A DNA stretch of 48,551 nt. Origin: Rozella allomycis CSF55. Taxonomy: Eukaryota. The notes under the pieces were generated by a model that saw nothing but the letters and a program-made list of their open reading frames with translations, searched no databases and was not told the origin of the DNA. Below, in pieces: positions 34,536 through 42,140 of this stretch. The stretch lies in the NCBI GenBank assembly GCA_000442015.1, contig KE560862.1:1-48551 (forward strand), in the 5' to 3' direction. Made by a program: the position numbers and the translations under genes. How positions within the stretch are numbered: the stretch's first letter is position 1; each line of letters opens with the position of its first letter.

Positions 34536-36403
34536 ATGAAAATTAATACAGCAGAATCTTTTGACACTATAGACTTATCCGAAACAACGTATAAAATATT
34601 CTGCTTGAAATATAGACGAAAGACTTTGAATGCATTAAATTTCACAAGGATGACACCTGTTCAAGCTGTTACACTTCCAAATTTTCTATCAAACAAAGAT
34701 GTAGTAGTGCAATCAAAAACAGGATCTGGAAAAACTTTGAGTTTTGTTATACCAGTTATTGAAATATGTCAAGGATTGAAATCTTTCATGTTGAATGATG
34801 TTTTGGCAGTTATTATAAGCCCTACGAGAGAATTGGCAAAGCAGACATATGATGTAACTGTGAAATTTTCAGAAAATACAAATCTTGTTGTTCAATGCTT
34901 AATAGGTGGCGTGGATATTCAAGCTGATGTAAAGAAAGTCAGAGAATTTGGTGGGAACATTCTGGTCACCACACCAGGCCGTTTATGGGATATAATGGAG
35001 AAATGCAGTGATTTTCTATTATTCAAAAAACTCGAAGTTTTAGTTTTTGATGAAGCCGACAAGTAAAATGCATTACTTTGAGCAATTAGATTAATACAAA
35101 TGGGATTTCAATCAAAAGTGACAGAAATTATAGGGAAATTACCAAAACAAAGGAGGACTGGATTGTTTTCAGCAACTTTGAACGATTCCATTAAAGAGTT
35201 AATTAAAGTTGGCCTTAGAAATCCAGTTAAAATCAACGTAACTGATTCTCACAGTGATGGCCAAACACCTGAAACACTGCAACTGTTTTATTCAGTTGTG
35301 AATCCAAAAGAAAAACTTTTTCAATTGGCTAGCTTCTTGAAAGAAAAGAAGGGATCCAAAATCATGGTGTATTTTGGCACCTGTGCATGCGTTGAGTATT
35401 TTCATCATGTAAAATATTTCTATAAATTTAATTAGCTCTTGTCAGAATGGTCAGAAACCAAAGATTTAAATTTGATTTCATTGCACGGAAAAATGGTCAC
35501 TAAAAAGAGAGATGGTATTATTATAAATGTAACGTTAAAAAGGGTTATATAAAAAATTTGTTAAAGAAAAGGATGCTATTCTTTTGTGCACAGATGTTAC
35601 AGCTAGAGGTATTCACGTTGACGATATCGATTTTGTTATACAGTAAAACATTCTTTATAATTAAATTGATACGATCCACCTCAAGATCCAAGTATGTTTG
35701 TTCATAGAGTAGGCCGATCTGGTCGAATGGGAAATTTGGGAAACGCTTTGGTTTATCTCTACCCCAACGAAGTTCCTTACTTGGGTAATTTTTAACTCCT
35801 TTGTTGATAGATTTTTTGAAACTAAGAAAAATATCAATGGAAGATTTGCCATTGTTCAACCACACACTTTGCTCATCGGGTATTTATGATCTGTTGGCTA
35901 ATCATGACCGTTCATTGTATGAAAAGAGCATGAGAGCGTTTGTCAGTTATGTCAGATTTTATCAAGAGCATCATGCCTCGTTTATTTTCAGATTTAAAGA
36001 TATAGCGATTGGGGATATTGCCGATGGATTTTTTCTACTGAATTTGCCTAGAATGCCTGAATTGGACCAGAAGAATATTGATTGGAAGCCACCGCGTCCA
36101 GAGGTTAATGTAATAATCGCACACATTACTGAGTAATAGGTTCATGAAATCGCGTTTAAAGATCCTCAAAGAGAACAACAACGACTTGTGAGAGTTGAAA
36201 AACAAAAAGAAAAGAAGGCAGAAGAAAAGAAGCAAAGAAAGAAAAGCTTGAAGAATAAGAAGAAATCAGGAATCACGAAAGGACATAGATTTACAGTTAA
36301 CGATTGGGATGAATTGCAATCTGAAGCCAGACTATTAAAGAAATTGAAGAAAGGAAAAATATCAGAAAAAGAAGTCGATGACGCTCTAATGAATTTTGAA
36401 TAA
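34536..36403 (+). CDS. SPB4: DEAD-box helicase Spb4/DDX55; introns 34589-34615, 35063-35089, 35409-35435, 35515-35542, 35643-35668 (GT-TG), 35785-35810, 36110-36139
   Basis: [69 protein letters not shown]. Confidence 0.93.
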
Positions 36404-36427: not shown

Positions 36428-38204
36428 TTATTTTTTATGGTGAAAATGGACTTCGTGAAAATTTGGTTCTTCGTATTCGCCATCTCTAAACTTTTTACTT
36501 ATCAAGGATGTCATACTAAACATGAATTGTAAAGCAATTTACTTTTGAAATTCTTGTTGCATTAATTTGTGCNGAATTCTTTGTTGCATTAATTTGTGTT
36601 CTTTATGAATGCCTAATGAATCTAAAACAAATCTTCCTATTTCAGTATTTTCTCTCGAACCACGCAATGCTTCACTATTTCGTCCGTAAGCATACAAGTT
36701 AACATCTACTCCTGTGTGTCCATATGTTGTCCAGCCAATATTCGCTCTTTTTGAAATCTACATGATTTTTGTCGAATAAATGTACTGTTTCGCCAAGAAA
36801 ATATTCAACTTTGGAATAATCATTATTTAAAACATGTTTCTTCAAATAATCCAATTCGACTTTTTCCAACTCGAACGGCAAATAAGCTTTGATAACTATT
36901 TTCAAGTATATTTCAATGCTGTCAGAGTTCATATTGTCAGATATATTCTCCTTTATTTCTTTTGAGATTCTACTAGTGGATTTATTAATATCAAGTAAAA
37001 TTTGTGGATTCCATTTATATTCAGGATATTCCTCTGTGTATTGCGCCCCTACTGTCAATCCCCCGGTTTCATGGTCCGACACTGATATCATTACAGCACC
37101 AGGATTTTTATCGACAAAGTCCTTGACTAACTCTACGGTTTGCTGATACATAAGAATTTCTCTTGCATGGGTTGCAGGGTCGTTGCTGTGAGCCGCCATG
37201 TCTAAATTTTCATTCTTGGTAACTTTGCCTTACCAATTCTCGAGCCTTCAATCATCAAAAAGAATCCTTTGTCAGATGCCTCCATTAAATTCTTTAATGC
37301 AAATGATGCCATTTCCATCAAAGAAGGCTGAGAATTGTCTCTATCAATTTCGTAGTCCATATGATCAAGTGAAAATAGTCCGATAAAAGGATATCCAAAG
37401 TTAACACACTTTTTCAATACTTACTGGTGAATGCTTTCTATAGAGCTCAATTCTGCCCTGCTAAAGGCCAAGGTAGCTGAAGATCTCTTTACTAGTAAAT
37501 TAATGTTATCTCGTCTGCAGGAATCTTTTCCAGATACAAACATGCATCGACCACCACCCATTAATAGATCAACGGTTTGGTTCAATTTAGAAAATCCCAT
37601 TTGGAATAATGCTATTTCACTCTCCATATCTCTATGTTCTACATGTGCACTAAAGGATGCCGGTGTTGCATGAGTCACTCTCGAGGTCGAAACTAGTCCA
37701 GTTGCGTATCCTGCCTTCTTTGCGGCTTCCAAAACCGTTATACAAGGTTTTTTGTTTTGATCCACTGAATGAATACAGTTTTCAAATTCGTACCTCCAAT
37801 GGCTCCATTGTATGTTTTTATCGCACAACTAAAGGCAGTAGCTCCGGCAGCACTATCTGTGATCAATGAGCTTGATGATTTAGTCCTGGAAGATCCAACA
37901 AGCATCGTGTCTAATGGCAATAGTAACTCTGCATCTTTATGTAATGCTTGATTAAATGACCTAGCAAAGGTTTGAGATGCTGGACCATATCCATCTGAAA
38001 TCATTAATATCACATACTTTCTATCTTTTACTATCTTTTCATAGAGTAATTACCTGTTTTTGTCTTGCAATGTATAATTGCGAACAAAAAAGCCATGAGA
38101 AATATGGAACACAAAACTACTCTCCATTTGAAATTATTAGACATTGACAAGGCCTTTTGATTGTGACTTTTACTTATCAGTGGTGTTTTTTCTCTTGTTG
38201 ACAT
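36428..38204 (-). CDS. PHO8: Vacuolar-type alkaline phosphatase (type II membrane); introns 38025-38053, 37765-37793, 37395-37424 (GT-GG), 37202-37233, 36758-36785, 36516-36542; N join at 36573
   Basis: ISDGYGP, TDSAAGAT, THATPASF, FFLMIEGSRIDMAAH, SDHETGG, GHTGVDV. Confidence 0.92.
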
Positions 38205-38277
38205 GAATATTGAAATTTTCGTAAATAGATCATTCATCATTGATAATGATTCAAGTCCAAATGCTAATTAAAACGGT

Positions 38278-39063
38278 TTATTGAATGACAGGTTCAAGTC
38301 TCCGAGAGGTAACGATCCTCATAATAATTATTGAAAACAATATCTGGCAGAAAAATAGAGCGAAATTAACAGCTATGAGGACAATGATGATGTAATTAAG
38401 CTTCATTTTGATAGCATCAAGTAAATTTAAAAGCCCTGCAGATCCGGTACCGGGCAAACCTGTCATGACAAGAATACAGTACAGAATATGAGCGAATTGA
38501 AATACGTAGTACAAAATATAATAGAATGAATTGTCGTCTCTAAGTGATTTTGAGTGATCATGGGTACTTTAAGGCCTTATATAACGAAATGTGCCAAGTT
38601 AGAAAGGAACAAAATGGTCCTAGCAAACAATATGCTATTGACAGTAGGATTGAACTGATTTGGTATTGATTGGCATCAACTGTCATTAATGCAATAACGC
38701 TTGCAAAATTCAGTATGTAGTTACTAACAGCCGCTTTTTAGTAATTTTTAACATGCATACTTAACCATAAAATATAAGACAGTCTAATCTGACCCCTTTT
38801 ACTTTCTTGTATCTCTTTTTTAATATCATGTGTGACGCATGGCCAACACCAAGGCCAATTAGGTGGCACGGCTTGGGTAGAAGGTAATTGAATTTGTGTT
38901 TGACCCAATATATGTAATTAAAATGACAAATTACGGAGTCTACAGGCTTTTCTTTCAATTTGTCTTGACCTTGTTTTAGGTCTTCTTTAATTTCTTTTAG
39001 TTTTGCTGTATTGGTTGGTGAACTAACTGTATTTTCAATTCCTTCATATCGTGAGCCGTTCAT
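38278..39063 (-). CDS. SCAMP-family secretory carrier membrane protein; introns 38906-38934 (GT-TG), 38734-38760, 38540-38567
   Basis: Spliced PPNWPWCWPCVTHDIKKEI, SFLTWHISLYKALKDDNSF (E-peptide-like) and four TM segments. Confidence 0.8.
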
Positions 39064-40333: not shown

Positions 40334-42140
40334 TTATTGATAATTTAACAGAAACCGTGTTTCGGAAGGACAACCAATAACTTTGACAATTGAATCCACA
40401 GTTTTTCCATTCTTTATTTCATCCCAAATCATTTTTGGGATTCTCTCAGAAATTCGATGACATCCAAAAACAGAGACTTTGGTTACATTTGAACTTGGAT
40501 TTAAAGTAAAATTTCTTTCAAAGGACAATAATGCATTCATCACATCATCGTCCACGTTGGAACACCAAGACAAATCTATAAGTTCAAGTTTACATACAGA
40601 AGAACAGATGTCCATTAGCATTTCTTTAGAGAGTAATCTCACATAATTTAGATTTAGATTCTCAATCTTTTTGATAAGAGTGGGAACTAATGGCTTCAAT
40701 GCCAGATCAGTCAGTTCAAGATTTCCAGCTAATGAAAGATGAGTCAAGTTTTTGGTCTTTTCAAGCATTTTGTTAACACATTCATCATTTATTTTTGGAA
40801 GGTTGGATAAATCAAGAAACTTTAACCTTTTCACATCAATAAAATCCAAAGAACTACTGGAAATATTAGTGCATTTGTTTAAACTCAGTTCTTCTAGTGA
40901 AATGTTCTCGAATATTGCAAGTAAGCAATCATCTGTGAGAGCAGGGCAATTCTCCAATTTCAAACTTCTTAGTTGNACATTTGTTTAAACTTAGTTCTTC
41001 TAGCGAAATGTTCTCTAATATTGCAAGTAAACAATCATCTGTGAGAGCAGGGCAATTCTCCAATTTCAAACTTCTTAGTTGTCTAAAATGTTTTATATGA
41101 AGAAGTCCATTAACAGTGAACCTATTATTTGAACAAAAGTGTAGCGCTTCTATATTCGGGCAATGCTGAGCCAAATCAGATATACCTTGATCTGTAAATT
41201 TAACCGACTCTACAAACGAAAGCCTCTTCAGTCTGGATCCAATATGATTCCCCAAAGAACACAAAGCACTGTTTGTCAACAAAAAGGCGCCAGTGATTGA
41301 AAGAGATTCAACAAAAGGAATGTTCGATACAAATTTGTCAAATGTTAAATCATCCAATCTACCACACTGCCTAAGATCTAGCGATTTTATAGGAAGACCT
41401 TGAAATTTAGACCATCCTTTTTCTGTAATATCTGTGCAGTCATAAATCGTTATATCAGGCTGGTTATGAATAAACAAGTCAATAAGATCATCATTCATTT
41501 TCCTGTTTCTACACACTAATTGGCACAACGAATCAATTAATGCTGGTTCTATATCGCCAAAGGCTTCAATATCTTCAATTAACGCATATAGTTTTTGTAG
41601 ACAAAGTACTTTTAAAGAAGGAACCTTGTTTAACAGAATATCATCCAGTAGAGAAGTTTCATGAGGTAATTTTTGAAGCTTCTTTGTAGCGCCTTTTCTG
41701 ATTGGTTTTTTATTCTTTGATAGTGCGTTTAAGGCGGATTTTTGGCATGATGCGCACAAAGAAGACCAACATCCAATCGGTAATAAAGTTGAGCAATTAG
41801 AGCAATGTTTTTGTTTCTTGAAATCATAATCCATGTCATCGTCATCATCTTTTTTAGGTTTCTTCTTTTTTGGTCGTTCTGATGCTGTAGCTTCCTGATT
41901 TACTTGTTCTTGAGCAATTTGATTATTGTTAACTATTGTTTCTTGTTCATTTGTCGTTTGTAATTCTTGGGTTGTCGAGGTCTCCGTTTGTAATGACGTC
42001 AAGTTAACGGTAGGCTGGATTTCAACCGTTTCATTTTCATTGGCATTTCTATTTCTCGCCATAGAAAGACGGGAGCTTATTCCTCGCTCTTCTAGAAAAG
42101 AACTAAGAGCGCTTCGTGGGCCTTTAACAGATCTCACCAT
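40334..42140 (-). CDS. RAD7: Rad7-like LRR nucleotide-excision-repair protein, split by an assembly overlap at the N at 40976
   Basis: N-terminal GPRSALSSFL, VPSLKVLC box, LRRs, C-terminal VSVFGC. Confidence 0.75.
40871..41081. repeat. 105-nt duplication across a single N (40871-40975 vs 40977-41081)
   Basis: 5 substitutions, all at third codon positions of the Rad7-like gene. Confidence 0.85.

Follow-up and report, generated by a model that had tools for sequence, protein, structure and literature searches.

The window, by which we mean the whole stretch of 48,551 nucleotides analysed here, corresponds to contig C514 in a eukaryotic assembly of 11.86 Mb and carries, on its minus strand, a gene that the preliminary description had labelled as an alkaline phosphatase (ALP). 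That label is borne out. Matches to PF00245 follow one another in profile order, with exons 2 to 4 scoring above the cut-off and exon 5 reaching 24.2 bits against a cut-off of 24.4. Of 131 near-invariant columns, defined by conservation in at least 90% of 116 homologues, the protein retains the residue in 126 and its paralog in 125. On these grounds the gene is assigned to the Pho8-type alkaline phosphatases, and the conserved motifs, whose residues we take to have metal and catalytic roles, are intact. Five introns of 29, 29, 30 (the third, in question here), 32 and 28 nt interrupt the gene, and the spliced frame has no further stop. The parts of the gene are as follows:

38054 to 38204, minus strand: exon 1, start codon uncertain, with a hydrophobic stretch
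38053 to 38025, minus strand: intron 1, 29 nt, GT-AG, passing over AGs at bases 19 and 23
37794 to 38024, minus strand: exon 2, PF00245 positions 2-79
37793 to 37765, minus strand: intron 2, 29 nt, GT-AG, at a position common to the paralog
37425 to 37764, minus strand: exon 3, PF00245 positions 80-170
37395 to 37424, minus strand: candidate intron 3, 30 nt, GT...GG, phase 2, splice predicted
37234 to 37394, minus strand: exon 4, PF00245 positions 216-267, opening with the conserved YPFIGLF block
37233 to 37202, minus strand: intron 4, 32 nt, GT-AG
36786 to 37201, minus strand: exon 5, PF00245 positions 270-342
36785 to 36758, minus strand: intron 5, 28 nt, GT-AG
36540 to 36757, minus strand: exon 6, carrying the GHTG motif

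The best protein match is a public model labelled Rozella allomycis, which differs from the window protein only in splice choices and two residues. It joins to an AG at base 84 of the third intron and drops the YPFIGLF block, with the loss of 18 conserved residues, and against a profile built from homologues its 84-nt intron scores 41 bits lower than a reading in which the intron ends with GG at base 30 (GG30). Within exon 6, a 27-nt duplication around an N at 36573 (36547-36600) is absent from three DNA runs and is an assembly artefact; N-flanked duplications of the same kind occur in L002, in L011 and near 40976. At the contig end (44850-48551) lie reverse transcriptase-like pieces, partly duplicated, which are presumably fragments of a copia-like retrotransposon.

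Because the protein keeps its near-invariant residues, an intron must be placed at 37424. The features of this intron are the following:

37419 to 37424, minus strand: donor GTAAGT, giving an in-frame TAA at 37423-37421 if retained
37409 to 37410, minus strand: AG at intron bases 15-16, upstream of the branch position and out of frame
37400 to 37404, minus strand: branch-like TTAAC at intron bases 21-25 (A23 at 37402, A24 at 37401), a putative branch site
37398 to 37399, minus strand: alternative TT end, 27 nt, in frame
37396 to 37397, minus strand: competing TG end, 29 nt, out of frame

As had been described, minus-strand positions 37424-37395 read GTAAGT...TTAACTTTGG between CAC CA and A TAT CCT, and exon 4 continues the frame of exon 3, from which it is separated by one TAA. 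The AG 16 nt into the intron is indeed out of frame, and its use puts five stops into the stretch that was tested; no further AG follows until base 84, which is far downstream and in frame. The ends proposed to restore the frame (AA at 24, TT at 27 and GG at 30) do so, the list being incomplete in that TG at 18, GT at 21 and TA at 33 also qualify. The donor GTAAGT, found in 39 of 1058 AG introns, has the U1-type consensus expected of a U2-type intron, whereas the terminal AG is missing and no usable AG is present. The genome encodes a U2 snRNA with GTAGTA, and the TTAAC lies at the genome-wide A peak described below, where it might pair as a branch site. Our custom gene finder also needs a non-AG intron at 37424. 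Read-through of the stop is compatible with its score (170.3 bits, with a 41-residue spacing), but nothing points to a changed code.

It had been suggested that raw reads be checked for an indel or an A at 37396, and three DNA runs from three studies have the same bases as the assembly. These runs (X1, X3 and X4) are available as contigs, which can hide minor alleles, and one may be the source of the assembly. Records X1-8 and X3-23 have 0 differing letters over 37353-38400, and record X4-24 spans the stretch with 30 differing letters and 30 gap bases, all of them outside 37395-37424. Run X4 also has seven differences (one a deletion) in the 32-nt intron at 37202-37233, with GT and AG kept, and a premature stop at 37711 (C>A) in a single contig of depth 25, perhaps through an amplification error. 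At 36817-36951 (seven differences) and 37265-37382 (six), a divergence of about 5%, a second haplotype is seen at about one third of the depth, which points to three copies or to an uneven mixture. A metagenome scan returned 80 loci, the best at 63-68% identity, and in the three examined (L095, L096 and L099) no intron was found at the place of 37424. In an RNA run with a matching species label, seven short pieces less than 90% alike were found, none on the ALP gene, which is not evidence on expression.

The rules that introns follow across this genome were derived with a two-strand gene finder, which was trained on this DNA itself, namely on 65 stretches (687 kb) with only AG allowed as an end. 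Of its 1066 introns, 940 measure 26-29 nt and 50 measure 30 nt, 13 are shorter than 26 nt, none has 16 nt, and 27 nt is the commonest length (281/1066). A run that admitted non-AG ends, the last two bases of which were left unscored, covered 85 stretches (887 kb) and gave 1531 introns, 1434 of them in genes of at least 450 nt and 1104 with long flanks and no N; these sets are gene-finder predictions, not transcripts. In the strict set of 1104, AG ends 1073 introns and another dinucleotide 31; the analysis of AG introns covered the 1058 of 26-33 nt, the 15 others being left out. The first AG from base 26 onwards is chosen in 1051 of the 1058, and AGs at bases 12-25 are freely passed over. Thus, the 16-nt AG at 37424 is unusable, because intron lengths set in at 26 nt and the first AG from that base onwards is the one taken. 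Irrespective of intron length, 773 of the 1058 have an A at base 23, compared with about 34% at other bases, and 26-nt introns make up 2 of the 141 with A24 but not A23, versus 137 of the 464 with A23 only. The A at base 23 or 24 thus looks like a branch A that would be placed from the donor, with a minimum of 3 nt to the acceptor. Base -3 is relaxed, as AAG is found in 351/1058. No depletion of G is seen 4-6 nt before a used AG, which rules out a strict "first G" rule as a general rule and shows that AG wins over upstream TG, CG or GG (hereafter BG). A further stop-free 27-nt GT-AG intron, hidden in frame at 26837-26863 (minus strand) in a gene that we take to be AAR2-like, was seen in the window and stands outside the tally of 82 given below.

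The preliminary description had gone further and proposed that only the terminal G of an intron is strictly required, citing about 3 of 86 introns. In the window we count 82 introns, two of them non-AG (35643 and 37424), which roughly reproduces that share, the second of two TG cases not being located. The other window site, a neighbour of ALP, is:

35643 to 35668, plus strand: GT-TG intron candidate, 26 nt, with a posterior of 0.99 for the TG end at 26

A blind test over the 887 kb, leaving out both window sites, found an in-frame TG, CG or GG end at 26-31 nt in 24 of 29 AG-less introns, versus 12 of 58 in the off-frame controls (p=3e-8). By eye, and with family motifs that we assume to be diagnostic, the five exceptions were judged to be three gene ends or fusions, one mis-framed AG intron and one unclear case. 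As the test was passed, the terminal-G rule holds as a fallback that concerns about 2% of introns, mostly with TG. The part of the proposal that stands is that an A at -2 is dispensable while the G at -1 is kept; "strictly required" was too strong, since AG is found in 1073/1104 and beats upstream BG, and GG is under-represented. Altogether, 26 of the 1104 introns are BG candidates (TG 20, CG 3, GG 3), and in 25 of them the next AG after base 25 lies at base 34 or later. GG is scarce (p=0.02 against one third), and the other two GG candidates are open to other readings, namely an in-frame TG29 and an AG30. When AG was changed to GG in silico, 347 of the 1058 introns acquired a new AG and a further 474 a competing G upstream, which can explain both the scarcity of GG and a possible leakiness of the allele at 37424.

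The site at 37424 shares features that are common among the BG candidates: a purine precedes the GT in 26/26 of them (832/1058 AG introns), and an A follows the acceptor in 16/26 (411/1058), the 26-member counts for these flanking bases taking in both window sites. In other respects it is the weakest kind of BG site. It ends in the rare GG, it is the only BG candidate of 30 nt, the other 25 measuring 26-29 nt, and it is one of two exceptions to the use of the first G from base 26, which holds in 24 of 26; its own first G, at base 29, is out of frame. The claim of a GT-GG intron therefore stands to the extent that GG30 is the best in-frame end, with a posterior versus the TT end at 27 nt (TT27) of 0.81 in a free mixture and 0.55 in a two-class model; it is weakened by TT27 being nearly equal by homology and by competition from the out-of-frame TG29. 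Ends at 18-33 nt cannot be separated by homology (172.9-175.6 bits with a profile from ALP homologues), nor is spacing decisive, as GG30 leaves 31 residues and TT27 32, and 103/104 homologues have 31-42.

On balance, we favour, with some reserve, the interpretation that 37424 marks a real U2-type mini-intron whose acceptor has lost its A, probably by a change from AG to GG, and that is cut at the GG often enough for the enzyme to stay under selection. A wider reading, which we put forward more tentatively, is that the spliceosome of this wild organism, owing to a rewritten Prp18 loop, relies on TG, CG or GG as the only constitutive acceptor of about 2% of introns, 37424 included, which would make it a natural counterpart of the yeast mutant with a deleted loop. 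On this wider reading, the branch A would be placed about 23 nt from the donor and ligation would follow 3-8 nt further on, which by extrapolation would involve hundreds of introns genome-wide.

The alternative that survives best, although we consider it rather unlikely, is that the gene is a dispensable paralog with a damaged acceptor. A recent change from AG to GG would have left TG29 or retention dominant and the allele weak or dead, buffered by the paralog (G000:C330) or by an AG haplotype. The first-G pattern predicts TG29, GG is scarce although A-to-G changes are common, and both the X4 stop and the minor haplotype bubbles fit this account. So does the intact paralog, whose corresponding segment holds a GT-AG intron of 30 nt; since that intron is shifted by 7 nt with respect to the conserved block and has another phase, it gives no fix on the boundary at 37424. 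Against this alternative, the conserved ALP residues have not decayed, and the X4 stop is confined to one contig and may be an amplification error. A weaker argument is that the public model, from another assembly and with two different residues upstream, also lacks the AG and skips to base 84.

That distance alone sets the end, at another in-frame dinucleotide and chiefly at TT27, we regard as improbable. In its favour, 27 nt is the commonest length, the HMM scores are equal (175.6 versus 174.9 bits for GG30), length favours TT27 at 0.97 if no G rule is applied, and its posterior is 0.17-0.45 in mixture fits that still count artefactual non-G cases. However, none of the other AG-less introns, once inspected, has a credible non-G end, and of the other in-frame ends, AA24 falls on the putative branch A, with those at 18 and 21 nt upstream of it. 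Slightly less probable still is a base error or a hidden heterozygous allele, such that the true or expressed sequence has AG. An AG allele is conceivable because contigs hide minor alleles and the second haplotype adjoins the site, yet the three runs agree with the assembly and contain no indel, with the reservation that one may be its source. That only canonical introns are used here, be it two AG introns (37492-37461 plus the 16-nt one), a 48-nt GC-AG intron or the public 84-nt intron, is hardly credible, for although all three options are in frame and AG-ended, they score 162.4, 163.2 and 133.8 bits, respectively, versus 174.9 for GG30, none of the 1066 introns is 16 nt long, and the 32-nt candidate 37492-37461 lacks A23 and A24, is among the top 13 of 1058 in GC and would remove residues that align with the solved alkaline phosphatase 3wbh.

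The splicing machinery offers a candidate cause for the relaxed acceptors. Prp18, a splicing proofreading protein, is present (L003:1561-1752, G000:C1022) and keeps 25 of 31 near-invariant columns; five of the six losses are adjacent loop residues (T, V, G, I and H), one residue is inserted, and 25 of the 26 other columns are kept. Among 102 complete homologues out of 149 matches, 86 have all six loop residues and none has fewer than three. A public Rozella allomycis Prp18 protein (P0123) has a loop identical to that of the genome; ahead of the loop, two neighbouring residues differ from the L003 translation. Passages of PMC10711555 state that yeast without Prp18 uses BG sites, UGG being one of the most efficient, along with shorter branch distances, and that deletion of the Prp18 loop increases the use of non-consensus 3' sites. 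In the yeast P complex, as described in part of 10.1101/212811, G(-1) pairs with G(+1) and A(-2) with the branch A, and the conserved Prp18 loop buttresses -3 and -4. We infer that the relaxed 3' sites may be tied to the rewritten loop, a correlation within one genome. Loss of Slu7, U2AF35 or U2 pairing was ruled out as a cause, all being present and ordinary-looking. Prp8 (L011:4554-4790, G000:C706, minus strand) has three changes within a stretch of 77 residues that elsewhere nearly matches the five best solved homologues; it keeps the alpha-finger Q and the W and E positions of known suppressor alleles. The changes include N to S at yeast position 1618, a presumed suppressor site, for which a literature search gave no printed source.

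Full-length candidates for U12 (L176:1501-1633, G000:C861; 36.4 bits) and U6atac (L177:1501-1607, G000:C12; 26.8 bits) were seen below threshold. A U12-type donor is GTATCCTT, and a 27-nt intron in L036, at 5907, opens with GTATCCTT. A minor spliceosome is possibly acting on tiny introns in this genome. For the intron at 37424, a U12-type GT-GG identity was ruled out, its donor being GTAAGTAT and the U12 and U6atac candidates lying below the cut-off.

Taken together, a sequence of events can be proposed. DNA statistics show that the donor sets the place of the putative branch A (base 23 or 24) by distance, and that the 3' end is the first AG at least 3 nt beyond it, AGs upstream being ignored. 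Where no AG is within reach, a nearby G after T, C or G would, on statistical grounds, serve as the sole acceptor, in about 2% of introns. By analogy with the yeast P complex, the last G would be kept through its pairing with the intron's first G, whereas -2 would pair only with the branch A; the rewritten Prp18 loop could then account for tolerance at -2 and -3 and for the very short spacing from branch to acceptor. At 37424, GG30 would compete with the out-of-frame TG29, and splicing is therefore probably leaky. If this is true, the genome has about 1 in 45 introns without AG together with a localised change in a loop that touches the 3' splice site, and nature would have provided a way to examine by what means spliceosomes enforce AG and what fidelity very short introns cost. 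Public gene models of Rozella allomycis, an early-diverging fungal parasite, would also be wrongly cut, as in the 18 residues lost from ALP, and miscut Rozella models would affect phylogenomic and gene-loss claims.

A search of open-access literature found no work on Rozella with non-canonical splice sites or a minor spliceosome. Single GT-GG introns are known rarities. As far as its sequence allows a class to be assigned, the intron at 37424 appears to work like BG splicing in yeast prp18 mutants, and not like a U12 GT-GG intron or a TG-AG tandem. According to passages of PMC10711555, S. cerevisiae prp18 mutants share with Rozella the kept G at -1, the free -2, short distances from branch to 3' site, UGG and UUG among the best-used sites and helpful exonic adenosines. 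In those mutants, however, BG sites are minor alternatives at least 7 nt from the branch, whereas in Rozella, a wild organism, they seem to be the only acceptors, lie 3-7 nt from the putative branch A and occur alongside a Prp18 that is present with its loop rewritten. Mutation of the Prp8 alpha-finger (Q1594A) relaxes -3 and -2 in the part of PMC12707134 available to us, and Rozella Prp8 keeps the matching Q. TG sites in human U2 introns likewise keep the last G but, in the passages of PMC2374985, are found only as alternatives beside AG, in 36 genes, and in Rozella no AG is in reach. Human U12-type GT-GG introns such as that of ARAF (PMC1557818, in part) have the same boundary with a different class of donor, that at 37424 being U2-type.

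The boundary is also shared with GT-GG introns of Ganoderma lingzhi, of which 38 (0.04%) are given in the portion of PMC11590231 that we consulted; the Rozella BG share is some 25 times that of GT-GG, TG and CG together in Ganoderma (79 of about 92,000). Finally, the ultra-short introns of myxozoans, Dicyema and Stentor have a narrow length peak, as here; the conserved A of myxozoans moves away from the AG as intron length grows, and that of Stentor lies at a near-fixed base, both as in Rozella (PMC13644364 and PMC9505925). The passages on these organisms report no non-AG acceptor class and no change in the Prp18 loop, and it is in these two features that Rozella, as read here, would differ from them.
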